Positions 760-63,550 of a stretch of 63,823 nt of DNA are shown here, piece by piece. This stretch comes from Chiloscyllium plagiosum (taxonomy: Eukaryota): positions 535,776-599,598 of the forward strand of contig NC_057753.1 in NCBI RefSeq assembly GCF_004010195.1. Reading direction: 5' to 3'. Within the stretch, counting starts at the first letter, position 1, and each line of letters begins with the position of its first letter. A program made the position numbers and the translations under genes. The notes under the pieces are model-generated. The model saw only the letters and a list, made by a program, of their open reading frames with translations. It had not been told where the DNA came from and made no database searches.

Positions 760-930
760 AGTACACATTCGTCAAAAGTGCCCAAGAAAGTTTCCTAAAT
801 CAATATGTAGAAGGGCCTACTCGAGACAGTACAACACTGGACCTCCTCTCAGGAAAAGAGGTCGGCTGAATGACTGAAGTGCCAGTCGGAGAGCACTTTG
901 GTTCCAGTGACAATAACACTCTTAACATAG
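760..930 (+). mobile_element. CR1-type LINE ORF2 endonuclease fragment
   Basis: FLNQYVEGPTRDSTTLDLL...VGEHFGSSDNN, typical C-terminal part of the CR1 APE domain. Confidence 0.85.
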
Positions 931-1530
931 TTAAAAAAATCACAGAACACCAGGTTATAATTCAACAGGTTTATTTGGAAGTGCTAGCTTTCAGAGAGCT
1001 GCTCCTTCATCAGGTAACTAGTGGGCAGGAGCATAAGACACAGAATTTATAGCAAAAGATTACAGTGTCATACAACTGAAATAAATTAGTGAACAAACCT
1101 AGATTGATATTAAGTCTTTCATCTTTTCGAATGGGTTGCAGGTTTCGGTTCATTAATATGTAAATCTCAGAACTTCTTTTAAGTCACATTTTTGGAAAAC
1201 AAGTTTTTTTTTAAAAAAGTGACTCGTCAGGTCAGACAATATATTAAAGATGTGAGGTTAGAGCCTGTCTGCATCCCAATCTTGAATCAGACCGGTTCTA
1301 TTTCCAAAGTAGGAATTGATAAAATGCCACATGGATTGACTGCTGCATTGATTTCCTGCAGGTTGTGTGCTTTTTGAGCAAAAATAGAATGTTATCCGTA
1401 AATACAGTTCTGCAAATGTAAATTCACCACATAAGCTTCCGCAAATACAGTTCTGCAAATGCAAGATTGGGATACAGACAGACTCAAACCTCTCACGTTT
1501 AATACATTGCCTGAGCTGATTAATGCCCTG
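930..1530 (-). mobile_element. Penelope-derived non-autonomous element with hammerhead core, inserted in CR1
   Basis: Shares the AATCACAxAACACCAGGTTATA...TTTGGAAG..CTAGCTTTC...CCTTCATCAGG end with copies at ~10250, 29760 and 60900; internal ~35-bp inverted repeat (1251-1285 vs 1461-1496). Confidence 0.6.
983..1016 (-). ncRNA. Minimal type I hammerhead ribozyme-like motif
   Basis: Minus strand reads CUGAUGA-A-GGAG CAGCU CUCU-GAAA-GC-UA: both catalytic boxes intact, stem II present, palindromic AGCU in place of stem III; stem I weak. Confidence 0.55.
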
Positions 1531-3042
1531 AGCCTGATCAAGTCCATCCTCGGGCATCGTAAGAGGCAAGGGAAGAAATTGCCAAGGCCTTTGCAGAGAT
1601 TTTTGATTCATCATTAGCCACTGGTGAAGTTCTGGAAATCTGGAGAGTGGTTAATGCTCTTGCATTGTTTAAGAAAGGAGACAAGCCAGGGAATTACAGG
1701 TCAGTGAGCCTGCCATCAGTGGTAGGCAAATTGTTGGAGACACTACTGAGGGACAAGATCAATCAACATTTGGATAGTCCAGGTCTGTTTAGGGATAGTC
1801 AGCATGGATTTGCACGTGACCATTCATGTCTGGCATACCTTTTAGAGTTTTTTGCAGAGTAACCAAGAGGATAGATGAGGGTAGCACAGTGGCTGTTCTC
1901 TATATGGGCTTTCATAAAGTCTTTGACAAGGTCCTGCACAGCAGGCTAGTCATGAAAGTTAGGTCGCATGGGATCCAGGGAGAGCTAGCTAATTGGATTC
2001 AAAAATTGGCTTAATGGTAGGAAACAAAGAGTGATTGTTGAAGGTTTTTTCTCAGACTGGAGGCCTGTGACCAGTTGTGTGCCACAAGAATCGGCGCTGG
2101 GATATATGTTATTTGTTATTAACATAAATGACATGAATGTACAGGGCATGATCAGTAAGTTTGCAGATGTTGCACAAATAGGAGGTGTCATTCAGATGGA
2201 GAAGTGGACTGTTAATTGGCAAATGCAATTCAATCTAGACAAGTATGAGTGTAGCAATTTGGAAAGTGAAACCAAAGTAGGTCTTATACAGCACACGGTA
2301 ATGTCCCGAGGAGTTTTGTGGAACAGAGGGACCTAGGAGTACCAGTACATAGTTCATTGAACCCAGCATCACAGGTAGACAGTGTGGTGAAGAAGGCGTT
2401 TAGCATGTTGGCCTCCATCTGTCGAGGTACTGAGTATAGGAGTTGGGACATTGTTACAGTTGGATAAGTCACTGGTGAGCCCGTGCATGGAGTGTTGTGT
2501 ACAGGTTTGTTAACCCTGTCATATAAAAGACGTAGTTAAACTGGAAATAGTGCAAAGACGATGTTTGAGGATGATACCAGGACTAGTAGGCCTGAGCTAT
2601 AGGCAGAAGTTGCCATGATAGGATTTTATTGCTTGGAACGTAAGAGAATGAGGGGTTACCTTATTGAGGTGTATACAATCATGAGGGACATAGATAGGAT
2701 GAATGCAGATAGTCGTTTTTCCCAGGGACGGGGAATTGAAAACTAGAGGGCATAGTTTTAAGGTCAGAAGAGAAAGGTTTAAGAAGGACATGAGGGGCAA
2801 CGTCTTCACGCAGAGTGCTGTGTATATGGAAAGGGTTGCCAGAGAGAGTGGCTTAGACAGATACAATTGCAACAGTTAAAAAAAAAACGTTTAAATAGGT
2901 ATATGGTTGGGAAGGGCTTGGAGAGATATGGACTAAATGCGGGCAAATAGAATGAGCTGAATGGGCACCACAGTCAGCATGAACCTGTCTGGGCCAACGG
3001 GCCTGTTGCTATCCTATGTTATTCTATGGTTCTATGGTTCTA
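1530..3042 (+). mobile_element. CR1-type LINE, RT domain to 3' end (decayed)
   Basis: KKGDKPGNYRSVSL, QHGF, VPQES, KFAD motifs with frameshifts; (TTCTATGG)n tail at ~3020-3042. Confidence 0.92.
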
Positions 3043-4099
3043 CTGAAGACATTTTCTTTGGAATTTCCACTACCCTCGTTGAGCTTCTCCAGTGCAGTAG
3101 CAACGCTAACACCCAAAAACGTGGAAAAAAATGCCCACGTACGTCCTTTCCAAAAAAAAAGGGCAGAACCAACTCACCCAATTGCCAAATGGTCAGTCTA
3201 CTGTTCACTGATGTATGACGCCATCAATAGCGCTATCCAGACGCACCTGCTGATCACACTAAATTGCTCACTGGTGCTCAGTTTACATTTAGCTCGGATC
3301 ATTCGTCTGCTGGCTTCATCACAGCCCTGCTTTACTTACTCACTGATTCCACCTGCTGAAACCAATAAATTCACACGAGGGACAGGTTGTTGACCTGTTT
3401 TGTGCTTGTGAATAATTTTCCTCATTCGTTCCACTTTTTAAGACTTCGTTTAACTTTCATTTTTCTTAAGTTTAGCCTTCATCGCAAAAATAGTGTGAGT
3501 GACACAAATACATATAATTTTTAACCAAGGACACCAACACCACACACAGTACTCGAACTGTGCTCTCATCAAGGCCGTGTATGACGCATAATTAGTTTTG
3601 CACTTTTATTGTGCAACGGTAGGACACATGTTGCCACTTGCCGTGCTAAGCGCTTGCAACACCAGCATGCTAACGTTTTGTGGTTCCTGTATCAGAGCTC
3701 TCAGATTCCACCGTACCTCTGAATTTTACAATCTTCCTTTAAAAATTAAATAGTGAAATGATGCCCGTTAAGGTTCCCAGCAGAGAAGTCAGATCCCAGA
3801 TTTTCAGACAAATATATTATTGTCACAGTATTTCATGAACTACAAACATACAAAGCAGCAGATTTGGCCTCATTGCTAAAACAGGAATTTATTGTATAAA
3901 CGCATGAAAGAAAAACAAACAAACTAAGCTATCCAAAACATAGCATAGTAAATTTCTATCTGCCTCCAAACACTGTACAATTAATCCAAATACAGGTACA
4001 GAACAAAATCCCTTCCCTATCAATTCTGTGGGTTGAATTAAACAGTCATTTTCCGGTTCTCATCCTGCGAACTGCGAAACCCTTTTCTTTAACTCACAC

Positions 4100-5450: not shown

Positions 5451-5483
<33 letters not shown>

Positions 5484-5520: not shown

Positions 5521-5879
5521 AAGAAGATGGGTTTCATAACTTTGGAATTCAATCGGAGCTTCTGTAAAATCTCTCAAACGTCTATGCACTGGAAATGAAA
5601 GGCAGCAAATACGCATGAGTGCAATCATTTCCAATTTTGCTTTCAAGTTATTGAGCATTGCGCCTTGCAATAAATACTCTCTGGTCCTTCTTTTGCTGAG
5701 CCACAGCCCTTGAATGTAGGATGTTGCTGAATGAAATTGTCGAAGTACCTCCACCAGATGCCGTCCAAGAAGAAGATGATCTCCCTTAATTGTTCCATCA
5801 ACGACTGCCCGGAGATGAACGATAGCCTTTCTATTAAAGCTGCCCGGGAGATCGTGAGGAATAGAGACGCTGAAGAGTC

Positions 5880-5978
5880 AGAACGATAAGTGTGCCGCTG
5901 GAAAAGCACAGCAGGTCAGGCAGCATCCAAAGAGCAGGAGATCTGAAATTTTGGGCATAATCCCTTCATTAGGAATGT
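5880..5978 (-). mobile_element. Penelope-type terminal repeat fragment with degenerate hammerhead
   Basis: GCTGGAAAAGCACAGCAGGTCAGGCAGCATCC...; minus strand reads CUAAUGA-AGGG AUUAUG CCC-AAAAUUUC; homologous to 15756-15934. Confidence 0.65.
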
Positions 5979-7315
5979 CAAGATCACACCCTTAGAATTA
6001 AAAGCCTTCACTGTATTATTTCAAATACAAACTACCACTTTATGTTGTTTGGATAGTGCCTGTTTATCAAGTTATTTTCCCCTGAAACTAACAATGTTGG
6101 GAATGCTTGGCAGCTTCTGTTGCGAGTAAATGAGCTCAGGTTTAAGGATTTCATGGTTTGTTAAAGTTAACATGACACAAAACGGCAGTAGGGGTCTTTC
6201 ACACAATCATATTCAAGCATTTTCAAATGTCATTTATTAATATTAACTCAAACGTTTGACACCACTGCCAGTTTTGCGCAGAATCTGAAACCCCGAAACT
6301 TCACTTTCAGTTAGGAATCGATCACACTTTTACACGAATCTCGGATTGGAAACCCAATTCCAGAATTTCCCATTGTCCAGTTGTAAAGGAACAAACACTG
6401 AAAAAAATGCAGGAAGTCAACAGGTCTGACCCATCCTAGAGTTCTGCAGAAGGGGCATACTGGATTTGAAGTGTTATCTCTGCTTCTGTGTCCTAAGATG
6501 CTGTCAGTTAACATTTCCAGTCTAGTAATCTTTTATTAAAGATAAACGTGGTTGTTTTAATGCTGCGAACTGACACTACATGAACGAGACTGCAACTGAC
6601 TACCTGCAACTGGGAACATTACCAATTGGAAATTCTAATTCAAACCACTCACCATTCCGACTTGGAAATGTGTTGCTATTTCTTCAATATTGCAGAGTCA
6701 ATATCCTGGTGTTCTCTCCCTAATGGCATTACATATCTACCGTCAACACATTGACTGCATGATTCAAGATGGTAGTTCATTTTCCCCCCTCTCCATTATG
6801 GACTGGAAATGACCATCTCAAAAGAGTTCAAGAAGGTAACCTAGACCTTAACATTTTATGTTAAAGGCAGAGGTGAAGTGACTATTCCAGGTGTGATTCA
6901 GCTGGTCATACAACTTCGCTTTAAGTAAATCAATATTTTCTTTAAAACTATAGTTGAAACACAAACAAAAGAAAGCAGAATTTAGAATAACTTGTTGGAA
7001 AATCCAACACAGCAACTTAAGTAAGAAACTTCTCCAATCAAGCAACAGCCCATAAACACACCCGTTGGCAAAAGGGAAATTCAAACACAGGTTCTTACCA
7101 GTTGGAGAGAACAACCTCCAGAGATTTCAGAGAGGTGCGTCAACTTGAAATCATCTCCTGAAGTTTGGAGCCCTGTTACACTCCAACTGCTTCTGTCTGT
7201 TACTGTGAAACCGAAGTTCAAAAAGCTTGAACGTGGAGAACTGTTAACTCCCTTGCCATTGCTCAACTAAGCTTTTCCGAAACATTTTGGTACCTCTGTC
7301 TTTACGAAATCTTTC

Positions 7316-9849: not shown

Positions 9850-12310
9850 CAGTCATAGAGTCATGCAACATGGAAACTGCCCCCTTCAGCCCAACTGGTA
9901 CATGCCATCAAGGGTTCCTAAACTGAACTTTCCCATTTTCCTGCGATTTGTCCATATCTCTATAAACCTTGGCAATCCATGTACCCGTCCAAATTCCGTT
10001 TACATGTTAGAACTGTACCTGCATCTACCACTTTCTCTGGCAGCTCATTCTATCTATGCATCACCCTCTGTGTGGAAAAGTTGCCCCTCAAGTCACTTTT
10101 AAATTTTTTTTCCTCCCACTCTAAACTTCTGCCCTCTTGTTTTGGACTGCTGTACAGTGGGGAAAAAAAGACCTTGGCGGTTCACCCTTTAAATGCCACT
10201 AATGATTTTATGATATGGAGGTACTGGTGTTGGAGTAGGGTGGACATGTTCAGAAGTCACACAACACAAAGTTACAGTCCAACGGGATTATTTGAAATCA
10301 AAAGCTTTCAAAGTGCTGCCCTTTCATCACGTGAAGTGATGAAGAGGTAGTGCTCTGGAAGGTTGTGATGACAAATAGACCTATTTAACTACAACTGGAA
10401 GTCATGTGACTTTTGACTATGACTTTATGACTTTATGACTCGTAAGCTCCAGGGAATAACAGTCCGAGTTTATTGAGTGTCTCCTCATAACTCAAACCCT
10501 CCTACCTTTGGGAAAATCCTTATAAATCTTTTTTGCACCGTACCATTTTAATGACATCTGTCTTGTCGGCCGACCGGAATTGTACACAGTACTCCAAATG
10601 TGGTCTCACCAATTATGTTAACATCCATAACATGAAATCCCAAACTCCTGTAATCAATGCTCTGACAGATGAAGGCAAGTGTGACAAATGGCCTTTTTCA
10701 CCAACCAGTCTACCTGTGACACCACTTTCAATGAACTGTGCATCTGCGCCCTGAGACATGTCAACATGCCCTTGGGTTCTTCCATTAAGTCCTGCTCTGG
10801 TTTGTCTTAAGAAAATGCAACACTTTGCATTTAAATAATTTAAACTCCATCTGCCATTCTTCGCACCATTGGCTCAGTTCTCCTCGTATGGAACCTTCTT
10901 GACTTTGTATTTAATTGGGAGTTGTTCACACACTCATGAACGATGCCTTAGATTTTCTCAACTAAAACGTTTACTTAACTGATGAATAACAGTGAAACAA
11001 ACACCAATACATGAGGCACACCACTGGTCACAACCTCCAGTCTGAACCACAACCTCTATCACCACCCTCTGTCTATGAGCATAAAGCCAAATTTTCCAAT
11101 TCGCTAGCTCTTCCCATTTGTTCTCATGGTATTATCCAGTCTGCCATGCGAAACCTTGTTAAAGGCCTTGCCAATGTCCATGTGCACAATGTCTGCCATT
11201 CTGTCTTAATCTACCGTCTTGGTCACCCCTCCAATGATCTCAGTCAAATTAGTGAGACACGATCTCCCACGTGCAAAGTCATGTTGAGTGTCCCTCATTA
11301 ATCCTTGCCGTTCCAAATGCACAAGGATCTTTTCTCTCAGAATCCCCTCTCATAACTTGTCCACCACTGACGTCAGGCTTACTGTTATATAGTTCCCAGG
11401 CTTTTCTTTACAGTCTTTCTTAAACAATGACACAATACTTGAACCCTTCAGCCTTTTAGCAGTTCACCCGGGGTTGTCCATGTCACAGATATTTCTGCCA
11501 GAGGCCGCAATTAAATTTCTAGAGTCCCACACCTAAGCATGTCCCAGGGATTCGTCTACTTTTATGCATTTTAAGGCCTTCAGTATCTCCTTGTCAGTGA
11601 TGTGGACTCTTCTCAAGAGATGAATATTGATGTTGCTGAGTTGCTCGCTTCCATGTCTTCCTGCGTTCTGCCACAAAATATTCGTTTGGGACCTCGCCCA
11701 TCTCCTGTCGTTTCACACATGTATGTGACCCTTTCTTTAAGGGGCCCTATTCTCTCCCTAGTTACGTTTTCGCCCTTAATATACATGTAAAATCATTTTG
11801 GATTCTCCTTAATCTAAACTGCCAAAACTATCTCCTATCTCCTTTATGCTGTACTCGTTTTCCTCTTAAGTGTGCCCTTATACCCCCTTTACTCTCAAAG
11901 GATTCACTGATCTCCGATGTTCATAACTGAAATATGCCTCTTGCTTTTTCTTGACCAGAGCGTTAACATCTCTCCTCAGTCAGCGTTCCCTACTCCTGTC
12001 AGCTGTGCCCTTCACTCTCACAGGAACATGTTGTCTCTGAACTCTTGTTATGTCCCTTTTGAAAGCTTCCAATTTGCCAGATGTCCTTTTGCTTGCGAAG
12101 AGCTACACCCAATCAACTGTTGACAGTTTCTATGTAATAACATCAAAATTGGCCTTACCCTGATTTGGAATTAAACTTGTGTATTAGTTGTATCATTTTC
12201 CATTACTATTTTAGGGGAATAGAATTATAGTCACTGGTCCAAAGGTTCTCATCCACTTGCCTGACTTATTTCCCAAGAAGTGGTCGACATTTGCCTCTTC
12301 TCTGTACATC
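9850..12310 (-). mobile_element. CR1-type LINE (decayed, ~2.4 kb) with nested PLE-derived palindrome
   Basis: Starts with the (AGTCATAG)n reverse 3' tail and continues as the reverse complement of CR1 RT/endonuclease sequence. Confidence 0.85.
10215..10420. mobile_element. Head-to-head pair of Penelope-derived termini (imperfect palindrome)
   Basis: Left arm 10251-10330 is an inverted copy of right arm 10338-10417; each carries a degenerate GUGAUGA...GAAAGCU-type core. Confidence 0.7.
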
Positions 12311-15725: not shown

Positions 15726-15755
15726 GGTTAGTCTTCTCAGATGCTGGAGATCAGG

Positions 15756-15934
15756 GTCGAGAAGTGTGTTGCTGGAAAAGCACAGCCAGTCCAGCAGCAT
15801 CAGAAAAGCAAGAGAGTAGACTTTTCGAACATGAGCACTTAATCAGACGAAGAGCTTATGCTCAAAACGTCGACTCTCCTGTTCCTCGGATTCTGCCTGA
15901 CCGACTGCGCTTTTACCGCACCACACTTTCTGAC
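15756..15934. mobile_element. Head-to-head pair of Penelope-type termini (~180-bp imperfect palindrome)
   Basis: GTCGAGAAGTGTG...(centre ~15845)...CACACTTTCTGAC; arms carry CUGAUUA...GAAAAGUC (-) and CAGACGA-AGAGC UUAU GCUC-AAAACGUC (+). Confidence 0.75.
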
Positions 15935-16227
15935 TATTTCAGTTTCTGTTTAATTGTAACTCACAGGGTGTTGGCAGACGGATAATTCAGTGACTGAAAA
16001 ACCATTGGGTATGAAGTGGTAATAGCTAGAGGTCTTGTTGTGTCGATGATCATTGGATGGATCTCAGAGCATTTGAAATCCACCAAAAGTACCAGCAAAT
16101 TCGGTGAAAATATCATGTGATAATTGATTCCGTGTTGAATGAGGCAGAGGTGCAATTTAGACACGAATATGTATATACAAGTATTTGAGGTATATGTATG
16201 TACATTTCTCTCTGCGTGTATATATAT

Positions 16228-42152: not shown

Positions 42153-42232
42153 GTTGGTGACAAGAAATATGTATTTGTACATGTCATTTTATTAAGGAGG
42201 AAATACTAAAATTGTATGTATTTCTATTACAG

Positions 42233-47232: not shown

Positions 47233-47524
47233 AGGAAATCATGGAAAGCAAATAGCCGTGGCTTCTTCTTTACTGAAAATGAGAGTGATGAACTGTAAGT
47301 GGATGAATCATTTGCACCCCACGAATAGCAATCTTTGCAAAATGTATGATTGGCTCCAAGATTTAACCCAGCAAAGTAGGGGACATGAAATGCTGTAGCA
47401 TTCAGAAATATTTGCATAGTCTGACAGATAGGAAATATTTTATAAACTATATGCATTATTAGCAATGAAATTCTAATGCAGATGTAACATGATCTCAGTT
47501 AAACAAACATCATTCTCTTTGCAG

Positions 47525-47907: not shown

Positions 47908-48227
47908 CTTGCAGTGATTGACTAACTGTTTTCCATAGATAGGTTAATGTTACTGTGGCAATAACTGTTTAAGTAACCGTTTAAGCATTTTCAATTCATT
48001 GCACGCATCAGTCACATTTATGATCAGTGATCACTTTTGTAAAAAAGAAAGTAGCCACTATTCCAAATTGCATCTGTTGGTAAAAGATAATTAAGCTTAG
48101 ACTCTGAAATGCAAGGAAAGCCTTGTCTTGTAAATCTAATCGTTCCGAAGATCGCTTGAAACGTTCCACCCCGCTACTGCAGGAAAACTAAACCGTGTTT
48201 AAGTCTGTATGTGGCTCCGATGGTTCT

Positions 48228-48233
48228 AATAAA
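48228..48233 (+). terminator. Poly(A) signal of the secreted IgNAR mRNA
   Basis: AATAAA ~320 nt after the secretory stop, followed by T/GT-rich sequence (48249-48280); a second AATAAA lies at 48475-48480. Confidence 0.7.
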
Positions 48234-49262
48234 TGCAGAATGGAAATACTTTGACTTACTTATTCTTGGTTTGCATGTATAGTACTTCCAAAAAGGTGAT
48301 TTTGACCTTGATTGAAGTGTGTGATACCCACTTGTGAGTCGCCAGCACTGCAGCTTGTTTACATGTGCAGACCTTTAGAGCCACTCGGCTTCACTCTGAA
48401 TAAGCCACACTTATCCTCACCATTTTTGGCTGCATTCCTCCATCATGCAGAGCCAATGGGGCATCGCGTTGTTAAATAAAATGATTGAAGATATCGTGGT
48501 GTCAACTTGTTCAATGTGCTAATCAGTTCTCCAAATTGCCCTTATCTTCATGTAACCAGTCTTGCCAAGTACTCTACGTCCAGTCGTGACGTCCAGTCAT
48601 AGTCTGTCGTATTTGTGTTGCATTTTCACAAGGATCCATGCTTGAGCCCTCATCCAGAGCAGGCTACACGCATTCCATCACAGATATCATGCGAGCAAGC
48701 TCAGACTCCACTTCGACACTGATATCACATACTTCCCTCTCACAACCGTCTATTTTTTCTCTATTTACGTCTAATACATCCTAAGACGTGACATAAAATC
48801 AAACAATGCAGAATCCGAAATCATTGTCCTCTGTTCTGTCGACACCTCAGGTTCGTCACTCATTGGCATCATTCAGCTTTTGTCCATTTCCTGTGGTGAC
48901 AGTTGTTTTCTTTTCTAACTTGAAATTCGACATAAATGGAATATTTAAGCTGATCAATCAACCCAACAGAAGACTGCCATTTTGTGGTTTGTCTGCTTTC
49001 ACCAAAATCATACTGACTGTTTCACCCATTCGTTGTCTGCTATATATCTTTCACTGTCTATAGTCTTAAATTTACACCAAACTTAATTACCAGGCATATG
49101 AATTCGCAGAAGTTCCCATTTACCCATCACTACTGAACATTTCAACCATGTCTATTAATGCTTCCCTTGCAAAACGCTTCCTCACTTATCGAAATAACAT
49201 TCAGTGAGTCAAATTCGTGTTTGGATTACCCTTACCTTCACTTCACCAGTCTTTCCATATAT

Positions 49263-49520
49263 TCCATAGAACATAGAACAATACGCTGCAGAACAGGCCT
49301 TTCGGCCCTCGATGTTGCACCGACCTATGGACTTTTCTCAACTCGTCTCCCTACACTATCCCAAAAGCATTCATGAGCTTATCTAAGGATTGTTTAAATC
49401 TCCCTAATGTGGATGAGTTGACTACCTTAGCAGGTAGGGAATTCCACGCCCTTACCACTCTCTCTGTAAAGAACTTGCCTCTAACATCAATCTTAAATCT
49501 ATCACCCATTAATTTGTAGT
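49263..49520 (-). mobile_element. CR1 3' end
   Basis: (CATAGAA)n reverse tail; DVRGKFFTERVVRAWNSLP. Confidence 0.88.
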
Positions 49521-49854
49521 TATAAATTCTGATACAGTATGACGGATTGCACTCGTACAACATCACTCCTGCATCAGTGCAAGAATCGCTGCTTTGAACT
49601 TCACCCATGTCGAATCTCCACGCTTACTCTGACTATTAGCAGGCGAAATCAGAATCCACCTGGACAATGAAAGCATCCATTTGAAGTATTATATGTGGAT
49701 GCAAATCCATTATCAATTAGCTGATCCTATCGTTGGTGTAATAGCGTTATGTCATTTCCAACCTGTGCACCTAACAGACCATTTTCCATGTATCAGTAGG
49801 TCTCCCAGCATCTGCGAAGAGAAAGCATTATCATTTTGTTCAAGTGACCTTCAT

Positions 49855-50140
49855 TAAACCCAACGAGGAAGGGTCACTTTAAACGAAACGTCAACTCTGA
49901 GTTTTCTCCACAGATGCTGAGAGTTGGGTGGGTATATAAATAGGAAGGATTTAGAAGGATATGGGTCAAGTGCTGGCAGGCGGGACTAGATTGGGTTGGG
50001 ATATCTGGTTGGCATGGACGGGTTGGACCGAAGAGTCTGTTTCCGTGCTGTACATCTCTACGACTCTATGACTGTATGTCCTGAGTCTTTCGAGCAATTT
50101 TTGCTTTAGTTTCTGATTTGCAAGATCAACAGATTTTTTT
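49855..50140 (+). mobile_element. PLE-type terminus (degenerate hammerhead) interrupted by a CR1 3' end (49925-50075)
   Basis: GAGGAAGGGTCAC...CGAAACGTCAACTCTG...CCACAGATGCTG, then the CR1 tail, then the PLE end resumes (CTGAG...TTTCTGATTTGCAAG). Confidence 0.65.
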
Positions 50141-50804
50141 TTATTTAAAGTGTCATGGCTGAAATATCGCACACAATAAGCTGAAACCAATGCAGCAATC
50201 TGGGGAGTTGGTTGGCAGGTTGTGTCTAGTTTCAACTGCATCTACGATGCCTCTTCTCCCAAAAAAACTACATTTTAACATGGGAGGAAAAAATCTTTCG
50301 CAAAACATTTGCAACATTCCGAATCTGCAAGGCACAAATTTCACATTGGCTATTCTGATTCGAAGTTTTTCGTGAAGTATGTGTTCTGATTAGTTTATGA
50401 GGGAGGAATGCAAAGGGTTGTGGTTCTGAAATGTATACATGACCACGAAAGCCTACACCATTGGTCAGGTGTAAGATAGCATGCTCAGGTAACCTGCTTT
50501 GGTAAACATATATGTCTGACCCGCTGTTCATGAATGTGATGAAAATGTTTGACATTCAGCAGTTTTGGCAGTTTCATGACATGAGATTCTTATTCTCAGT
50601 AGATTGTATCTCCGCATGTGACACTCTGCTTTGCACTTCGATGTGACATAACTCCATGTGGAAAGGCATATCTTTGTGTGGATAGATCTGTTCAACGTGA
50701 TGTGACAACTGTTCGTGCTGGATTGGTGATTGGAGAGTTCATTTCAATTGTCTGTTCTGTGTATCCATGCGTGAGGCTGTCTCTGAGTGGGAAAATATCG
50801 AAAC

Positions 50805-51945
50805 AAGTTCCGCGTTTGATAAGTTTCCCCATGGTAGGCAATTGCACAAAATATTGAGGCATGGGATTGAGTGTGCTTTCACGGTTTGAATCAAAAATTG
50901 GGTAGCTGAAAGAAGAAGGTGGTGTTTGATGGGAAATATTCTTCGTGGAGTTCAGTTCCTAGTGATGTACTGCAAGGATGTGTTTGGGATCCACTGCTGT
51001 TTGTCATTCTTATAAATAACCTATATGCGGCATAGGAGGATGACTTAGTAAATTTGTGGCTGATACTAAGATCGGTAGGCTTGTGGATGGTGCCGAAGGA
51101 TCTTGTGGATAACAGAGAGACATAGATAAACTACAGAGCTGTGCTCAGGTGGGGCAAGTGGAGTTTAGTGCGGAAAGGTGTGACGTGATTGACTTTGGAA
51201 AGAACAGCAGGAATAAAGAGCACTGGGCTAATAGTAAGATTCTTGGTTGTGGAGAGGAACAGAGAGATCTCAGTGTCCATGTACATAGATGCTTAAAAGT
51301 TGCCACCCAGGTTGATAGGGTTGTTAATAAGGCATACAGTGTGTTAGCTTTATTTGTTAGAGGGATTGAGTTTCGGAGTCACACGGTCATGCTGTAGCTG
51401 TGCAAATCTCTGGTGTGGCCGGACTTGGAGTATTTTGAACAGTTCTAGTCAACGCATTATAGGAAGGATGTGGAAGCTTTGGAAAGGGTTCAGACGATAT
51501 TTACTATGACTTTGCCCGTATGGAAATAAGACCATATGAGCAAAGTCTGACTGACTCGAGGCTGTTTTCATGAGAGAGAAGAAGGTTGGAGGTGACTTAA
51601 TTGAGACATACAAGATAATCAGAGAGTTAGATAAGGTGGGCAGTGAGAGCGTTTTTCCTCGGATAGCAATGGCTCACTCGAGTGGACATAGCTTTAAATT
51701 GCGGGACGGTAGTTATAGGACAGATGTCTGAGGTAGTTGCTTTACTCAGAAAGTAATAGGGGATTGAACGCACTGCCTGCAAGAATAGCAGACTCGCCAA
51801 CTTAATGGCACTTAAATGGTCATTGTCGAGGCATATGGACGAGAATTGAATAATGTAGGTTGGATATACTTCAGATTGATTTCACAGGTCGGTGCTACAT
51901 CGATGGGCCTGTACTGCACTATAATCTTCTATGATCTGTGTTCTT
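50805..51945 (+). mobile_element. CR1 fragment (same subfamily as 34980)
   Basis: KVATQVDRVVNKAYSVL; near-identical 3' UTR. Confidence 0.92.
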
Positions 51946-53289
51946 TGTGGTATCTGGTTCTGCAGTGACTGTTTCGTTGTATATTAGAAAGACCGTGCTG
52001 TATACTGTCCAGCTTTTCAGTACTGGTGGGGGTGTCAGTAACTAGAGCAGATTCCTCAGGTCATGTAATGGGGTATCTATCCATGTCAGAAACTACCTTT
52101 GAATTGAAGAATGATGCTGCTACTAACCTAGAATCTGTACATGTACAATCTTGCGTGACATGATGACAATACAAATGGCGAAGCTTTTTATATGGTATCT
52201 GTTCATACTAAAACAAATACTCATTTATTGACGGTTCCATGACATTACGTGTTGGTTAGTTGTTGAAATGTGTAAGCCACCATTCTACATCAGCTATTTG
52301 AAACATATCTTTTGGACAGAAAGAATTGAAATAAAGTTTGGGAATTGCCTTCTGTCTATTTCTCGATTTCGCAGTCGAGATCCACTGTGCCAAACTATCT
52401 GCTTGCCACCTTAATCCGTCATTTTCATTGTTCTCTCCTCAGTAATTCGATACCAACTCACCCAACTCCACTGAAGTCTTGTTATTAATTGCATATGCGT
52501 AAACAAAACTGATTTGCTTTTTGGATGCGATAAATGCCAGTTGCAGCTGTTACTGAGAGCACACAGCAGGTCAGTTCAAACCAAAATGGCATTGATAGAC
52601 TAAAACCCTGGACGTGAGCTTTGAATGCATTCTGTGAAACAGTTTATTCTGTGACAAGTACGAAACTTCTGCGACCATGATTGTTTTTGATGAAATGTCC
52701 AAATGCCTGAACACATTATGAGCACTAATTTCTTCGCATTAACTATACTGGTGTGAATTCAAGATTTCTTGAAGACAGACATTATATTGGCATTAATTAA
52801 GGTTTCAATAATTTGAAGAAAACATTGCGTCAGGCGAAATGGAATGCATAAACTATCATTCTATTGTTGGACGATTGTTATAAATGATGTAGTGTAAGGA
52901 ACAATATTTGTGCACTCGTTATTCCTAAGCTGCATCAATGATTATGAGGACACCATGCAAGATTTTCAGCATTGTCAGTGGCAATTAACTACGTGGGTCG
53001 TGATAAGAAAGCAAGGAGGCTCCTAACTGATATGGACAGTCTGATGCCTGGGCAAGAAGAGATCAGATGGATTATTTTGTAGATTAAGTACAAGTTTATC
53101 CTCTTTGGCATAACGGCCTTCAATGAGGAGTATCCCTGAAAAGCCAGGAGAATGGGAAATGTTAATGCTAAAAGGGAATTGTGAGTCTGACTACATTAGT
53201 TATTGAAATCTAACAAATGCAAGAAAGAGATGGAATGCTAAAAGGGTTGGTGTAAAGACAACAATCAATAAAACGAAGGAGTTGAGCAT

Positions 53290-54010
53290 TGCCTTGTGGA
53301 AGTGAAGTTGACGGCATGCCCCTGTCTGCATCAATAGTGCTGAGATGGGGTTCATCCACAGTGTCAAGGTTCTGGAAGTGATTACGACCAACAAACTGTC
53401 TGGTCTACCCATGTCGTCTCAATGTTCAAGGAAACAAAAGAGCATCTCTACTTCCTCAGGTGGCTGAAGGAAATTTGATATGTCCACAAGCACTCTTATC
53501 AATTTTCACAGATGCACCATAGATAGCCTTCTCTGTGTCTGCATCATAGTGCGATTGGGCAACAGCTTTTCCCATTACCACAAGAAACTACAAGAGTCAT
53601 GAACACAGCCCCGTCCATAACATAATCCAGCCTTCCAGCATTTGAAGACGTGTTGATTTTCCATTGTCTTGGGAAACCAACTAATTGAATCAAAGACCGC
53701 TTTCACTCCTGCTACGTTTTCTTCCAGTCTCTTCTCTCAGACAGAAGACATAAAAGCTTGTGCACATGTGCAAATATATTCAAGAATAGCTTCTTCCCTG
53801 CTGCTATTAGATTCCTGAATGGAACTCTCAAATATTATATTTCATGTTGATCTCTCTCTGTGCCTCTTATCTGCAGCTGTAGCATTTTATGTTCGCTCGG
53901 TCCGAGGACCATATATACTTTGTTTGGTATGATCTGCCTGCACTGCACGAAAAACAAACCATTTTACTGTACCTAGGTATATGTCAATAATAATTCCAAT
54001 CAAATCAAAT
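53290..54010 (+). mobile_element. Rex1/Babar-like LINE 3' fragment
   Basis: Decayed LYFLRWLKEI...INFHRCTIDS...HKKLQ motifs and FKNSFFPAAIR; short repeat tail CAAATCAAAT. Confidence 0.65.
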
Positions 54011-54559
54011 TTGTTAGAAAGCAATGAACAGCAACTATGTTTTAAGGAGTTCAATCGCAAGTAAATTTGATGTGAATGCACGTATTGCTTCAAATTTGTA
54101 GTATTGCTAAGATTGCACCGAGACATAGTGCAAAATCTATTACCTTCACTTAAGTTAGGATGCAATTTCCTTTCAAATGAATTGTGATGGACGTCCAGAC
54201 AAATTTGTGAGATTGTCATACCATCCCATGAAACGACTTTGAAGAGACAGCACTAATAGTCTGAGCTAATCGAATAATGAGAGATTGACCGAGGATGTGC
54301 ATGACAGTGTACGGTTGGTGTTTGATGTTAATGACATTAGCGGCAATGTGGATGTATGGAAAAATGACTCGAGGTAGGCGATCCCATACTGTCGAGAATG
54401 GTGAATCAGTATCAAGGGGTGGGACGGTCTGCTCCATGCTTCCATATTCCTGTCATCTAAACAGCAGCAAGCTACAGAATCGAAGATAATTAAAACAAAA
54501 AGGAGAGTAGCAAATCAACGAGAGAATTAATAAAATGATGGAAAAGTTAAGGCATACCT

Positions 54560-55950
54560 AAGTATGTTTTCATTGAGCTATTTCAGGGAAGAATGTGAAT
54601 AATGAAAGCATTGGGATGAACAGGAGTGGCCATTGTAACTGTTTCTTACAGAATTCTTTGTCTCCACTAAGGAGGGAATTAATGCAAAGAGTGTAATTAA
54701 AAATGGATTCCAGTAAAATTTTAGATTAAATAATAATGAGAATGAAAGTATTGTAGAGTCAAACCTCCTGGAAAGTGCATAAATATTTCGTGGTAAAAGG
54801 AACCCAGTGAGGAAATAATAGATGCTCAAAGGATCATTTGCCAATTCTCACGAAATGTATGTGAGGTAGCAGAAAATTATAATTGTAAGTCTACAACTAT
54901 TCCAGCCTCGAAAATGTCTTGATGGTAGACCAGAAAGTTAAAGGCCAGTCAGTCTATACTCCATGGAGGGCACTTTACGATAACCAATTATTAGAGGTCA
55001 GGTGGAATGCTACTAAGAAAGAGATGGACTAATCATGGAAAGTCCGAATGAATTTGTGAAGTGAACATCGTGTGTTATGAAGTTAAGCGATTTTTTTTGG
55101 TGCAATAGCATCAAGGGGACTCTTAGGGATAGTATTTCGGTAATGTCTAAATAGATATAGTGAGGCATTTGCCGACGTCCAACGTAGAAGACTTGTCAGA
55201 AAAATAAAGCCCATGAAATACAAGAGAGCGCCAAGTTTGATTACAAAATTGTGTCACCGACAGGAAGCAACGTTTAACACTGGAGAATGTGTTCCTTTGT
55301 TTTTGACCATCTCCAGTGTTGTATGACACGACTTAGTGTTTTATCGCTTGGAATTTGAGGTGTACATTCATGATTTATAGTTTAATGTGAAAGTTTTAAT
55401 TTGGATTTCGTTGATGATACAGAGGCAATGGCGTCATTTAGATTAATGATAATGGCTGTCAAATGTAGCTTTATATTACTGGTTCAGTTCTGCTGGTGAA
55501 ATATGATAATTTGAATTCAGTCTGTAAGTGGGAATATATGAAGTGAAAGGATGTCAGAAACTTTACAGTATACGTCCACCAGTCCGTGATTGCTGAAGAA
55601 CAGGTGATGAAGTGGTTTTTAAAAAAAAAGGCATGTGTGAACCATTGAGATGTTTTCCTGCTTTTGATGAAATGTTGAACACAAAATATATGCAATGCTC
55701 GAACTCTGTGGGTAGTTTATTGAATCAAATGCAGCAGTTTTGTGTCGAGTCCAAGTCACCACGTTCGTGGAAAGGCAAAATTGTTCAGGATAGAGGACAA
55801 CAAGTTCTATAAGAATGATGTGAGAAATTTTAAATGGATGTACCATTGTTGTTTTCCTTCTAAGACAGGCGGCAGAGTTCTAACTAAATTGAACAGTACA
55901 AAATAATGAGGGGTTTATGTAGTCTGGGCAGCGAAGCCATGGTATTATTG
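54560..55950 (+). mobile_element. Highly decayed CR1
   Basis: Remnant RPVSL, ESPNEFVK and downstream RT-like sequence. Confidence 0.45.
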
Positions 55951-57119
55951 CGGGGAAGGCAAATACATTAATGTATTATAAACAAGTAAAGTAATTTTTG
56001 TTTTACAGTCACATTCTGTAACTAGAACAAAATAACTGATCGTCGTTTAACCAGAGGGTCCCTCTAAGGACGACATAGTAAGTAAGGGAGAGAAAAGCAT
56101 TTCCATCCGATGCTGGGAGCTGTCTGGGATTTGCTTCCTGGTTTGATGGTTGAGACTGAAATCCTCAAGTTATTTGGAAGCATTTTGGATGTGAAGCTGG
56201 GGTGTTGTGTCATTCAGTAATGTTGTATGGTTCTATAGTTCTGCAAAGTTTCATTTATAACGTGATCGCTAAATTGATCTCTTCAAACCTGTCAATGGAA
56301 CTTTATTGGTGGGAGCTGTTTTGAACTTAGAATGAATCATTTTGGATCAAGTTATCAGTCAGTTGGAGAAATGTGCATTAATTACAGAAATGAACCCATG
56401 ACTCAAAACAGGAAAAAAAAGGTGTTCAAATAATTGAATGGTATTTTGACGAGTAACAAAGTGTCATATGGTTGAAATGCTGTCATGAAATTGCAAGAGG
56501 AAGAGAATCAATACTTTTCTACAATTGTAAAGTCCCAGAATACAAAGCCAATTGTAAAAGATGACAGGAAGTCATATAATTGCCAAATGAGATGGAGTAT
56601 CTATGTGCTTCCGAATTGAGAAAACATATATAGTGATCTGTACTGAACAGGCCACTGGTTAAATCTTTCTATGAGAACTGGCGTTCTCTTCCCCGTCCCC
56701 AATAATTGTCTATTTCACATAATCTTTAATACCTAATTAGCATCTGATTCCACTTTATGTCTACGAATGTTCTGCACCGAGCGATATCAAGTGCAATTAT
56801 TTTAGATGGATTTTGTTTAATTGTTGTTGGTATCAAGAGGCAAGATATTAGTTGGTGGTCACCAGATGCTGTTGTCATTCTCACTTTTTTCTCCGAACGT
56901 AAAAAGCACAATTGTATGGGACATTAATACATTTTACAGATCCATAGATGCACAGATTCATAACAGCACAGAAAAGACCCTTTGCTCCATCGTGTCTCCT
57001 CCAACATGCACTAAACGTGCACTAATTGCAATTTACTGCACTTGTCCCATATCCCTGAATATTGTGATATTTGAAGTACTTTTCCATTTCTTCAAAGTTT
57101 GCAAGGTTTCCAGCCAACG

Positions 57120-58940
57120 TGAGAAGTTGTTGGCTGTTAGGAACAAGGGAAACGTGAAGACCTTCTACAGATATATCAGGAATGCAAGAATGACTGGAGT
57201 AAGATCAGGCCAATCAAAGATGGCTTTGGAAAGTTGTGTGTGGAATCTGAGGACATAACTGAAGTGCTTAATGAATACTTTTCGTCAGTTTTCACTTTGG
57301 AAAAGGGAAATGTTTGTGAGAATGCAGAGATGCAGACTACAAGAATTGATGGGATTACGCTTGACAAAGTGGAAGTTTTAGCAATTTTGGAAGATCTGAA
57401 AATAGTTAAGACCCCTGGGCTAGACGGGGTTTATCCTCGAATTCTCGGGGAAGCCAGTGAACAGATTGCAGAGCCCTATGCTTCGATCTTTATGCCACCA
57501 TTCCCGACAGGAGTAGTGCCAGAAAACTGGATGATAACAAACGTTGTTACCTTGTTTAAGAAAGAGAGTCGGGACAACACTGATCATTATAGGCCAGTGA
57601 GCCTTACAGTGGGTTATAAGAGTTACGATATATGAGCATCTGGAAAGGAATGATTTGATTAGGGATAGTCAACACAGTTTTGTGAAGTGTGGGTCGTGTC
57701 TCACTAACCTTATTGAGTTCTTCGAGAAGGTGACAAAACAGGTGGATGAAGGTCAGTCAGTTGATGTAGCGTATTTGGACTTCAGTAAGGCGTTTGATAG
57801 GATTCCACGTTGTAGTCTATTGTACAAAATATGGAGTTTCGGGATTGAAGGTGATTTAATGGTTTGGATCAGAAATCGGCTAGCTTAAAGAAGATAGGGG
57901 ATGGTGCTCGAATAGGAATGTTCATCCTGGTTCTTGGTTATCAGTGGCATGCCGCAAGGATCTGGTCTGGGGGCACTGCTATTTGTCATTTTTATAAATG
58001 ATCTGGATGTGGGCGCTAAAGGATGAGTTAGTAAATTTGCGGATGACACTAAGGTAGGCAGAGTTGTGGTTAGTGCCAAAGGATGCTGTGGGCTACAGAG
58101 GGACACAGTTAAGATGCAGAGCTGGGCTGAGAAGTGGGAAATGGAGATTAATGTGGAAAAAGTGTGAGGTGGCTCACTTCAAAGAAGTAATGGGTACGCA
58201 GAGTACTGGACTTGAGGTAAAATTTTTGGCAGTGTAGATGAACAGACCGATCTCGGTGTCCAGGTGCATAAATCCCTGAAAAATGTCACCCAGTTTGATA
58301 GGGTTGTTAAGAGGGCATATGGTGTATTCGCGTTTATTGGTAGGGAGATTGAGCTTCATAGCCACAAGATCATGCTTCAACTGTCCAAGATATTGGTAAG
58401 GCCGCACCTGGAATATTGCATGCAGTTCTGGTCACCGCACTATCAGAAGGATGTTGAAGCTTTGGAAAGGGTTCAGAGGACATTTACTAGGATGTTGCCT
58501 GGTATGGAAGGAAGGTCTTTTGAAGAAAGGCTGAGGGAATTGAGGCTGTTTCCGTGGGAGAGAAGAAAGTTGAGAGGCGACTTAATCAAAATGTATCAGC
58601 TCATAACATGGTTAGATAGGGTGGGCAGTGAGAGCCTTTTTCCTCGGATGGTGAAGGCTAACATGAGGGAACTGAGCTTAAACTGAGGGCTGTTAGATTT
58701 AGAACAGATATTCGGGGTAGTTTCTTCACTCAGAGATTACTAGGGGCGTGAAATAGCCTGCCTGCAGTAGTAGACTCGCCGAAGTTAAGAGCATTTAAAT
58801 GGGCATTGGGAATACGTTTAGATAATAATGGAATGGTGTAGGTTACATGAGCATCAGAGTATTTTCACAGTTCTGTAAAGTATTGAGGCCCGAAGTGTCT
58901 GCACTGCGCTGTAATGTTCTATGTTCGATGTTCTATGTTA
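57120..58940 (+). mobile_element. CR1-type LINE, ~1.8 kb (same subfamily as 34980)
   Basis: EVLNEYFSSVFT, KTPGLDGVYPRIL, DFSKAFDRIP, KFADDTK motifs; tail TGTAATGTTCTATGTTCGATGTTCTATG. Confidence 0.95.
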
Positions 58941-58944
58941 CCTC

Positions 58945-59870
58945 GCCAATCTGTGCATTCCAAATTCTCTCTACGTGTTGAATGACACTCTGAACCTCAT
59001 GCTCCTGTCGTGATTGACTCCTCAACCAAGGGGGAGGGGGAGGTGTTCTCTATTAAAACTTCCCATACCACTCGTAAACGTATACACGTAAATCATACCC
59101 ATTATGTCTTCTCTTTATTGAAGAAAACGATCCAAACCTATCTAGGGTCGTAACATAGCTCAATTTGTCTGTCCCAGGCAACATCTAGTGAACCTTCCCT
59201 CTCTTCCCTCTGATCCTATCACATTCTTCCTGCCATGACAAGACCAGAACTGGACATTGTACTCCAAACCTGGCCTGACTGACGCTTTGTACAAATCCAA
59301 AATTACTTCTTTATGCTCTATGGCACGACAGATGAAAACAAGTGTGCCATAACACTACTTCATCTTGTTTCTTCTTCCAAAGCATATTATCTCGCACTTA
59401 TCAGGGTTAATTATCATCTGTCTTAGGTCTCCAATCACCCAATAGGATCTTCACTATTTACCACTCTTCCAAATGTGGTGTCTTCTGCAAGTTTGCTTCA
59501 TATTCCTCCTCCCCCCACATTCTTATCTGAATGTTTTGTGTATCCAACGAACAATAAGTGTCCTTAAATTGCTCCGAGTGGTGCACTGTTGCACAGAAGG
59601 CTCCAGTGATCCAAACAGCCTTCTATCATTGTCTTTGGGTTCTATTACAGAGCCAGTTTCTGATCTGGTGTGAAAGCTTTCGCTCAGGTCCATGTGCTTT
59701 AACTGTTTCAAATAATGTACAGTAAGAGGTCTTTCAAAAGCTTTGCTGCAATCCATATATAAACTACATCAACTGATCTCCTGTTGTCCACACATTTTAT
59801 TGCATTTTCAAAAAGTTCCAACAAATTTGTTCGGCATGACATCCCTCTGAGAAAGCCATGTTTACTATTC
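58945..59870 (-). mobile_element. Old CR1 fragment
   Basis: MDCSKAFERP... on the minus strand plus 3' region similarity. Confidence 0.65.
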
Positions 59871-60087
59871 TCTGCCCTCTATTGCCTGTTCTCACAACTA
59901 TGTAGTCTACTCTGTCATGAAAGTCCCATGATAGAACATTAATTCCTTTACTGAAGTTTACTCAGTCTGACAACGAATGTATCAAATAGCGCACAATTGC
60001 CGGTGCCTTGATATTACAGAAAACTTACCGGGACTTTTTTTGTCGACGTGACTAATTTTTCAAAAAAAAATTCTCCACTAATTGCAG

Positions 60088-60245
60088 GTATCTCTGAAAT
60101 AATAGCGGACCCGGTAGACTATGACATCGAAGAAAACGAACGAGAAAATTTCGTTGGAGATGCCAACAGTTCATTATCCATTATGACGTTTGTCGTCCTG
60201 TTTATTCTCAGTACGCTGTACAGCACATTTGTAACTGTGCTTAAG
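60088..60245 (+). CDS. IgNAR: IgNAR transmembrane exon TM1
   Basis: Acceptor ttgcag| at 60087, phase 1, matching the C5 internal donor; (G)ISEIIADPVDYDIEENERENFVGDANSSLSIMTFVVLFILSTLYSTFVTVLK; acidic spacer plus CART motif (TF..LF.LS..YS...T); donor AAG|GTAATA. Confidence 0.93.
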
Positions 60246-61029
60246 GTAATAACACATTTTAATAGCTATGTTACATTCGGCTTTCATAGATGAAATCATG
60301 TTAATCTGCACATAATAATGCAGAGATGTTATTCAAAAAAATCATTAATCCTCTTCAAATGAATGACATTGATCTTGAGTGATTAACTGCCGTCTTGAAT
60401 AATGTCCTCATGGGATGATTGCACAGAGGAATGCAAGCACACATTTAAAAAAATGCGGGATTTAGGAACCAAAATATGTCAGTCATGAAATAATGCTTCA
60501 CGCGTAGTGTCAGCTCATAAAAGGGTAGAAAACGGTTTTTTAAAAAAAGGTAATTCATACTTGCTGGAAATAAGCTAGACATGGTGAAATATATTGAGAC
60601 CCGAGAGTATAAAGGTAAAAACATAATAGATGGAAAGAAGTTCAGCACAAATTGTTTCAAATAATTCTTCATCTCCGTGAAGGAATGAGGAAAATATTTG
60701 TTAATGAATGGGATTAACTAATTAGTTTAGTTTCGATTAGTTTAGTTCAGATTAGTTAATGAATCAGATTAATTAGTGACAGATCAAAGTGAATTTATAG
60801 GAAAAGCATAGGTATGAGAGGCGACTTTATTTGTAACATGCAGGATTCTTCCAGATCTTTACAGGATAGATGCAGAAATATTTAAAAAAAATATTATAAA
60901 ACCAGATTCTAGTCCACCAGTTGCATTTGGAACCACGAGCTTTCAGAGCTCTGCTCCTGTGAAGTGTGATTTTTAGCTTTATCCACCCCACTCCAATACC
61001 AAATTCTCGACATCATGCAGAAAGATTGT

Positions 61030-61640: not shown

Positions 61641-62934
61641 AAAAAAGGCACTCGACATCCACACAATTTTGAGTGGGCGACTTCAACATCTCCAGCGTCT
61701 TTTATAAGAGGAAATGGTTCATCACATCACTCCCTATTATGTTAGCACTAATTAATACTGTTACCAAGCATACTTCTGTACTCTGTGACCATCATCATCA
61801 ATATCACCATTAGATAATGATGATTGAGTTACCAGTTCAATACAAAAGTTTGATGCATCTCAAGAGTTATCCTGTTTCACTGCATTTCGCTCAGAACTAA
61901 TTTCAGACACCTTGTGTCATTCACCTTAATAGAAATCCACCATGATCACGGCAACCATCCAAAATCCATTTGATGTTTGAATGCACGACATTGTTCAAGT
62001 GACTCTGTGTTATGCAGAATCTACCACCAATTTATCCTTCTTGCCGTATGTCCTCTGCAGCCAAACATAAAGTTAAGAATTCAGTGTAACTATAACAGGA
62101 TGACCCGCTCAATGTGTCCCACACATAGCCTTGAATTAGGAATCTGTAATCTATTAATAAAAAACAAACAAATACAGAAGTTCTGAAGAAAGTTCACTGC
62201 ACCTGCAGCATTAAATCTGGTTTCACTGTACATGCTGCCGGAGGTTTTCCATCAATTTCAAAATTTGTTTTTGATTTCGAGTATCCACAGATATTTAGCT
62301 TTTTCATTAATGAAAATGCTTTGGCTGAGAAAAGAAATCCTGCATGACAATTGGTTGCTTCGCAAGTAGGTGAAAGCCTCATTACACGGGGCACCCAATT
62401 GAAATGGAGAAGAAGATTCATAGATTTTGTTTTGAGATTTTCAAGGAATAGTCAAGGGCCTTATTATAATTTTATGTTTAATCTCTTGTGCTTAAATAAC
62501 ACACACAGACATATGGTCCCGTCAGTTCATTTTTCCAACTTTGCTAGAACATTGAATACTGTTTCTCCTGGAATTTCCCACTCTAACTTTAGAAACTTGA
62601 TTCTCGGCAGATTGTCGATATATGCTGCAGAGTGCACTTTTACATTTTGTCCTCAACTGGCCTCTGAAACACGTAATTGCCCCAGCATTACTGCACCGGC
62701 GGTCACTTTGTCAACTGCAAGCACGGTTTTCAGTGAGGCCATTCCAAGTTGCAGGCAGGATGATGGCATCGAGTGAAAATTAATTCAATTAATTTATTAA
62801 CAGGAACTCAGAATTTGCTGATGTTTTGTAATCAAATTTGAACCGTCTTCGCCAACTGTAAACAACCTTTGCCAAAAGAGAGAAAATGCTGGAAAATCTC
62901 AGCAAATTTGGCAGCATCTGTGAGAAGAGAAAAG

Positions 62935-62973
62935 AGCTGACGTTTCGGGTCTAAATGACCCTTTGTCAAAGCT
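62935..62973 (-). ncRNA. Minimal hammerhead-like motif in the PLE terminal repeat
   Basis: AGCU-UUGACAA-A-GGGUC AUUUA GACCC-GAAAC GUC-AGCU: stems I and II perfect, palindromic ACGU, GUC cleavage triplet; the first core box is a variant (UUGACAA). Confidence 0.6.
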
Positions 62974-63511
62974 AAAAAAGGGGAGAAATAGGGAGGTATT
63001 TATACTAGGCTGAGAGAAGCAAAGGTAGCAATAAAGAGGCGATAATGACAGTGCATAGAGAGATTATAGGGAGATTAGGAGCTGTGAATGGGGGAGCGAG
63101 AGCAAGAGAGACAATCAAGAAATAAGAGGTACATAACAGTGAAAAAATAGAAAAAAAGATAAATAAAATAAATGAAATGAAATTATGGAGCAGAATGAAA
63201 ACAGAGGGGTCGAGAAGGGACAATCATCTGATGGTGTTGAATTCAATGTTGAGACCGGCAGGCTGTAACGGGCCTAGTCGGAAGGTGAACTGCTGTTCCT
63301 CCAGTTTGTGTTGAGCTTCACTGGAACATTGCAGCAGGCCAAGGACAGACATGTGGGCATGGGAGCAGGATTGTGTGTTGAAGTGGCAAGCTACGGGCAG
63401 GTCCGGGACCTGATTGCGCACAGATATGGCTCCAGAAGCAAAGGTAGCAACAAAGAGGTGATAATGATAGTGTAAATAGTATAAATACCTCTCTTATTCT
63501 CCCTTTTTTTA

Positions 63512-63550
63512 AGCTTTGAGAAAGGGTCAGTTAGACTCGAAACGACAGCT
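63512..63550 (+). ncRNA. Second (inverted) copy of the hammerhead-like motif, probably inactive
   Basis: AGCU-UUGAGAA-A-GGGUC AGUUA GACUC-GAAAC GAC-AGCU; triplet mutated to GAC. Confidence 0.5.

Follow-up and report, generated by a model that had tools for sequence, protein, structure and literature searches.

What are the short repeats with hammerhead ribozyme cores that lie in and around the IgNAR gene of the shark Chiloscyllium plagiosum, and how did they come there? We examined this in a 63,823-nt stretch of the genome (the window), for which the original prediction had listed 12 such sites, equal to 14 arms, an arm being one stretch of repeat, alone or joined to an inverted partner. The repeats are very probably dispersed, mostly decayed 3′-end pieces (pseudo-long terminal repeats, pLTRs) of several endonuclease-bearing (EN+) Penelope-like element (PLE) families that carry a minimal type I hammerhead ribozyme (min-HHR) in the terminal repeat; they were likely inserted, as dead-on-arrival copies, by the reverse transcriptase (RT)/GIY-YIG protein of the parent element. 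The window itself shows that the copies belong to families and fit the motif, that a GIY-YIG fragment lies upstream of a motif on the same strand, that there are fold-backs with the tail on one side only, and that the copies have decayed with the motif no better conserved than the rest.

Membership of the repeats in families

Comparison of the window with itself grouped the listed sites into families, and family membership was then assessed with leave-one-insertion-out nhmmer profiles, the tested insertion being excluded to avoid circularity and the reversed window serving as decoy. All listed arms except 25334 were recovered (13 of 14 arms, at 11 of the 12 sites), with the best decoy at an E-value of 0.2 or worse. 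E-values ran from 5e-17 to 1e-9 for family A and from about 2e-11 to 3e-8 for family B, and stood at 5e-11 for family C; the family D copies at 6444, 46835 and 49863 were recovered weakly (1e-3 to 2e-5 at best). Two weakly supported arms raise the total to 15 arms in 11 insertions: one at 49794-49850 (-), with leave-one-out E-values of 0.009-0.036, and one at about 62183 (+), which was not recovered leave-one-out and for which raised depth and bridging contigs favour membership. Family A stands apart from the others; B, C and D have downstream sequence in common (the B model matches C at 2e-10), and the third family of the prediction mixed C, with its U3-A8 core, and D, so that a division into three families is approximate.

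The hammerhead signal lies in family membership, because plain CTGANGA heptamers are not enriched in the window (44 observed vs 42.4 expected). A strict minimal type I hammerhead descriptor returned two perfect-core matches, 62969 (-) and 1013 (-), vs none in 12 shuffles, in line with the predicted motif class; with one core change allowed and helix I required, it returned 62969 (-) and 63516 (+), again vs none in 12 shuffles.

The listed CUGAUGA-hairpin-GAAA stretch at 25334..25361 (+) is probably a chance match and is not counted as a family copy: it is without U16.1, palindrome, helix I and homologous flank, and a match of this loose type occurred in 10% of 300 shuffled windows. Three further candidates, at 4596 (-), 4801 and 12314-12339, had no family support. 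Short-motif loci in viral and metagenome contigs (0, 18 and 81) were treated as chance, none of the 99 extending into the families past the seed.

Architecture and decay of the motif

Core scoring covered 13 family arms; the arm at 60935, which has lost the first box, and the arm at 49794-49850 are outside the scored table. The majority columns, CTGATGA-A-helix-GAAA-CG-T, keep both the CUGANGA and the GAAA boxes, as had been anticipated, and 120 of the 143 core positions are canonical. Only 1013 (-) and 62969 (-) are complete; five arms have one core change and six have two. An unpaired A follows position 9 in every arm. The first pair of helix II is G-C in 6 arms, G-U in 3, A-U in 2 and unpaired in 2, and the palindromic pair that replaces helix III is CG in 5 of 13, GC in 2 and changed in 6. 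Helix I differs by family yet pairs in each majority (A, UCAC/GUGA; C, AGCU/AGCU; D, AGUU/AACU), and the 3-8 pair is C-G or U-A by family. Families thus differ from one another in pairing sequence and in a swap of C3-G8 for U3-A8; within families many pairs are broken and only one, pair 2 of B, has changed from G-C to A-U.

Both family C arms have U3 together with A8; they form one insertion and hence are not independent. One other contig has the family C first box, and no majority change at U3 or A8 appears among the variant rows listed. The U3-A8 of family C reads as a compensatory core pair, not as decay. The U16.1>A of the 63516 motif is a private change of the window: at 63545 more than 99% of the contig depth reads U, i.e., U16.1 is restored.

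Decay of the motif region has kept pace with that of the flanks, without extra conservation (motif vs downstream, 83% vs 80% in family A and 81% vs 88% in family B). The 62969 motif folds correctly in isolation, with a z-score of -2.2; in the minimum free energy fold predicted for 62860-63660, however, 38 and 39 of the 43 bases of the motifs are taken up in pairs with the far arm, and there is no local pairing. The nearest same-strand relative of the 1013 motif is 9 kb off and carries C3>G. The hammerhead motifs at these loci are predicted to be inert: mutations affect 13 of the 15 arms, and of the two intact motifs 1013 (-) combines a weak helix I with the lack of an intact partner of its kind on the same strand, whereas 62969 (-) would base-pair with the inverted arm of its insertion.

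The link to Penelope-like elements

Between the two family C arms, at 63224..63424 (-), lies the end of a PLE-type GIY-YIG endonuclease, comprising the C-terminal 65-70 aa of its open reading frame and the stop codon. When the window was searched with 98 homologous proteins, 95 matched back to this interval, the best at 58% over 69 aa (E 2e-19). The Pfam GIY-YIG domain was found in 7 of 18 homologues scanned, in six of them below the curated cut-off and in one above it; the fragment itself had no Pfam match. The intact 62969 motif follows on the same strand about 255 nt downstream of the fragment, as in a 3′ pLTR. No PLE RT was found in the window, where only the endonuclease end is present. 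Homologue P0029 has a CX2-5CxxC linker, a portion absent from the window; this linker is assigned to Neptune and Nematis in PMC8557442, and it points to these rather than to Poseidon. The PLE origin and minimal type I architecture that had been proposed are upheld by this fragment upstream of the same-strand motif, by the inverted arms with a one-sided tail described below, and by helices that differ between families yet pair.

A direct copy, 40-45 nt long, of the pLTR segment 63015-63053 is found at 63426-63472, between the GIY-YIG piece and the inverted arm; it suggests a template switch during insertion.

Several points weigh against reading all of the repeats as PLE pieces. There is no full-length parent among the window sequences, and the analysis covered the 63,823-nt window. 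The protein evidence links only family C to PLEs; the search of the window with homologous proteins found no PLE coding remnant beside the A, B and D copies, B and D being linked by shared downstream sequence, motif and scar geometry, and A by motif and scar geometry. An Rfam scan of the window gave no hammerhead family up to E 5, only two unrelated chance rows. Decayed copies are few and most departures break pairs, so that within-family covariation cannot be shown. The local folding z-scores are modest: beside that of the 62969 copy, those of the 63516 and 1013 copies are 0.17. On the other side, contigs of two DNA-type runs have about 2e5 summed depth on the family C arms vs about 30-300 on unique flanks; summed contig depth, however, is not a copy number and is taken here only as "very abundant".

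Fold-backs, tails and a proposed route of insertion

Six of the 11 insertions are head-to-head fold-backs. Four of these have a tail on one arm only (15820, 49863, 60935 and 62935-63512); the tail of the 10300 fold-back is ambiguous, with long interspersed element (LINE) sequence after its plus arm. Contigs carry the tail that is absent at the 62881 arm; in them, further arms are joined head to head at 62972/3 to 63512/3, where helix I starts. An adjacent inverted 5′-truncated copy and an optional tail of 30-40 bp are described as PLE features (PMC8557442, PMC3846280). For Poseidon, a PLE of the lizard Anolis, in vitro work reports that the protein cleaves and extends both target strands, that the RT starts within the RNA, at two sites past the hammerhead that are one tail length apart, and that the main substrate is uncleaved RNA, the protein being required for ribozyme cutting (PMC11167929).

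By analogy, the parent RT/GIY-YIG protein would nick both target strands at the shark locus, and priming of cDNA would take place some 70-140 nt past the hammerhead, at two sites close to each other, the tail being included or not. Two short cDNAs on opposite strands, one from each site, would then meet head to head and leave a fold-back with a one-sided tail. Since the core is present in the copies and is situated 5′ of the scissile bond, the template would have been uncleaved at the hammerhead; cleavage by the motif in the parent element would be weak, in a dimer or assisted by the protein. Once inserted, the copies decayed.

The family C region 3′ of the motif, 63555-63655 (+), folds into a long stem closed by the tail, a candidate priming structure; folding of the downstream tail is significant in family C (z -2.5) and not in A and B.

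Individual copies

The family A insertion at 933..1519 (-) has a long arm (about 933-1373) that extends upstream of the motif into pLTR sequence, and is self-inverted over 1227-1519; CR1-type LINE sequence begins shortly past 1519. Its min-HHR at 985..1013 (-) has an all-intact core, an AGCU palindrome, a helix II of 4 bp with G-U as first pair, and a weak helix I of one contiguous pair; a TATAAAT with a putative promoter role lies at 1045..1051 (-), 38 nt upstream of core position 3. In the family A fold-back at 10212..10420, a minus arm with tail (core 10330-10302) stands head to head with a plus arm (core 10336-10364), both with C3>G. A solo family A copy with tail occupies 29760..29885 (+), with G8>A and a broken helix II. 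The family A fold-back at 60877..61017 has a minus arm with the CUGANGA box deleted and no tail, and a plus arm reduced to 3′ end and tail.

Family B comprises a solo copy at 5862..5976 (-), with G5>A and G12>A, and a fold-back at 15735..15936, the minus arm of which starts at C3 (G8>U, with tail) and the plus arm inside the first box (G12>A), helix I being present in neither. Family D includes a decayed copy at 6440..6543 (+), with A6>C and A15.1>G (leave-one-out E 0.001-0.007, weak); a copy at 46768..46880 (-), with G5>U and a broken helix II; and a fold-back at 49781..50134, in which the weak minus arm noted above faces a plus arm (core 49863-49892) with two core changes and a broken helix II. 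This plus arm is interrupted by a CR1 3′ end (49924-50077) and its tail continues at 50080-50134; the copy is therefore older than that CR1 insertion. A probable family D copy at 62178..62294 (+), absent from the earlier list, has an intact first box and two changed bases in the second; depth is raised over it, and contigs join 62199/62203 to 63564.

The family C insertion consists of a 3′ pLTR arm without tail at 62874..63007 (-) and an inverted pLTR arm with tail at 63477..63650 (+). The hammerhead of the former (62969-62939, -) has a fully intact core with U3-A8, a helix II of 5 bp, a helix I of 4 bp and an ACGU palindrome; that of the latter (63516-63546) has the U3-A8 core and U16.1>A. 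TATAAAT stands at 63004-62998 (-) and at 63480-63486 (+). Both arms also have a splice-acceptor-like pyrimidine run that ends in AG at the start of helix I (62973-63000, -; 63488-63513, +); the intron of Drosophila Penelope ends at helix I (PMC4209133).

The IgNAR gene and its surroundings

The germline IgNAR cluster occupies 26743..60246 (+) and was identified by Pfam and by matches to VNARs in PDB, with leader, J and transmembrane (TM) exon read by eye. It comprises the leader at 26743, a V-set exon at about 26912-27180 (Pfam; E 7e-48 against solved VNARs), D segments, J at about 28510-28560, five C1-set exons at 39847-47904 (Pfam) and the TM exon at about 60088-60246, a layout that agrees with the V-3D-J-5C-Sec-Tm clusters described in PMC8692893. 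The 3′ end of the TM transcript was not located, a pattern search for a short terminal TM exon finding none. In a single-cell polyA run 469 reads were placed, four of them at ≥99%, with no pile of ends and none on the TM exon, and in a second run none were placed; such polyA data are ill-suited to small linear or circular RNA.

Between leader and TM exon there are three insertions: 29765 (+), sense to IgNAR, in the J-C1 intron; 46875 (-), antisense to it, in the C4-C5 intron; and the 49863 fold-back in the C5-TM intron. It is thus true, as was predicted from the 29765, 46835 and 49863 sites, that some repeats sit inside the IgNAR transcription unit; all are broken, the three scored arms within the mapped gene each having core changes and a broken helix II, and therefore no effect on the pre-mRNA is expected. 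On the sense strand of 60935-63550, 63516 is the sole near-intact motif, and it is without U16.1.

Four CR1-type LINE RT fragments lie on the plus strand in IgNAR introns (35100-37200, 44000-45000, 50900-51950 and 57100-58950), about 70-80% alike and spaced by 7.85, 6.93 and 6.98 kb; such regular spacing may have arisen by chance or from an old tandem duplication. tRNA-like short interspersed element (SINE) copies with RNA polymerase III (Pol III) box matches, separate from the hammerhead repeats, occur at 23210-23410 (+), 30790-30990 (-) and 46970-47220 (+). A recent local duplication, 7316-7674 / 7738-8095 (95-99% alike), and a perfect 39-bp tandem pair at 8601-8681 could each be an assembly artefact. 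Runs of N mark assembly gaps at 16554-17053 and 41620-41756.

Discussion

How the short copies arose admits a refinement that is compatible with their being PLE pieces, and that we put forward tentatively, as possible and no better than that: they would be run-off products of a PLE transcript, not random truncations. Transcription from a TATA promoter in the pLTR would begin with the 5′ strand of helix I, which would make the ribozyme the 5′ leader of the mRNA; the protein would prime at the copy of the initiation site near the mRNA 5′ end, and the cDNA of 100-150 nt would be inserted whole, the solos and fold-backs of 100-200 bp being complete cDNAs primed on one target strand or on both. Sequence upstream of the motif is kept in only three arms (1013 in family A; 62969 and 63516 in family C), all of which have TATAAAT 35-38 nt upstream of core position 3, a like spacing in two unrelated families, and in family C it lies 31-32 nt before the first helix I base, which is the usual TATA-to-start distance. 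A TATA match within 60 nt upstream was found in none of the other 11 family arms examined, and TATAAAT occurs 20 times in the window (about 0.002 per 10-nt span). Starts 4-6 nt upstream of the core recur, CTTCAC opening three separate A insertions and AGTT two D copies, and the family C contig joints fall at the start of helix I. TATA with an initiator is described in the rotifer PLE pLTR (PMC3846280), the only paper on a pLTR with TATA that the literature search returned. However, the pattern was noticed after the fact, in two independent families only; the internal promoter of Drosophila Penelope is without TATA (PMC2377424), the starts of the B and 49863 arms are ragged and fall inside the first box, and the same boundary could come from RT stalling at the folded motif or from a splice acceptor. 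If true, the run-off account would explain a huge "SINE-like" population without any SINE, and the promoter and priming sites of PLEs could be mapped from genomic scars alone. The TATA-to-helix-I spacing offers a cheap test of run-off origin for short copies.

The original prediction had gone further and taken the repeats for SINE-like non-autonomous ribozyme retroelements, a claim that the window does not support. True SINE- or retrozyme-like elements, re-transcribed from their own copies and spreading via the hammerhead, are an improbable source. In their favour, the short end is very abundant (summed contig depth 250,717 at 62955, 50,472 at 63040 and 13,443 at 63221), 5′ starts are held in common, retrozymes have been reported from one chondrichthyan genome (bioRxiv 10.64898/2026.07.22.740005) and some PLE derivatives are known to be non-autonomous (PMC8557442). 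Against them, there are no head-to-tail units, none of seven tandem-repeat rows in the window overlapping a copy and all paired arms being inverted. Nor are there Pol III boxes at the heads: no copy has a box A, box B matches lie elsewhere save one at 29861 in the tail of 29765, and ARAGORN found no tRNA genes in the window. Moreover, the motif is minimal, not canonical; PLE coding sequence is part of one copy, and the upstream TATA is missing from the short ones; and a monomer defined by cleavage would end with the core and not begin with it. Least credible of all, and so unlikely as to be nearly negligible, is that some copies have acquired a role in cutting or regulating the IgNAR pre-mRNA. 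Two arms do lie on the sense strand in IgNAR introns (29765 and 49863), but in each the core is altered and helix II broken. The two intact motifs, for their part, are antisense to the gene and lie outside its mapped exons, and insertions are no denser inside the gene (3 in about 33 kb) than beyond it (8 in about 30 kb). By its sequence, the IgNAR locus bears no sign of hammerhead function.

As pieces of PLE terminal repeats, the copies resemble in most respects the min-HHRs described in the pLTRs of metazoan PLEs by Cervera and De la Peña 2014 (PMC4209133). They have the type I layout without helix III, the palindromic 15.2-16.2 pair, the unpaired base after position 9 and G10.1-C11.1; there are several families per genome, mostly as single motifs or as opposite-strand pairs 100-700 bp apart; and the U3-A8 variant is found there in Schistosoma Cercyon. 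The published minimal motifs cleave weakly and only as dimers. Unlike that set, the host here is a shark, helix II is short (4-5 bp) and most copies are decayed; in one of the supplement files of that paper there is no mention of shark or of four cartilaginous-fish names. With the insertion units of EN+ PLEs (PMC8557442, PMC3846280; for Poseidon, PMC11167929) the window shares the C-terminal GIY-YIG followed by a motif-bearing repeat, the head-to-head inverted arms and the one-arm tail, but it has no full-length open reading frame, and its units mostly measure just 100-200 bp. Retrozymes form head-to-tail tandems of 150-450 bp, for which canonical motifs and circular RNAs are typical (PMC7229834, bioRxiv 10.64898/2026.07.22.740005). 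Like the animal non-LTR retrozymes, which are related to PLE pLTRs and reported in the one chondrichthyan, the window repeats are non-coding and carry type I hammerheads; unlike retrozymes, they are solo or inverted and their motifs minimal.

The motif class, the U3-A8 variant, the opposite-strand pairs and the fold-back scars are already in print. A search of the hammerhead literature on shark, elasmobranch and chondrichthyan, covering few subscription journals, returned no paper devoted to shark PLE hammerheads. The present finding extends the known association of min-HHRs with PLE terminal repeats to the shark IgNAR locus, at about one insertion per 6 kb, and the scars left there are many natural records of how PLEs prime and end their cDNA.

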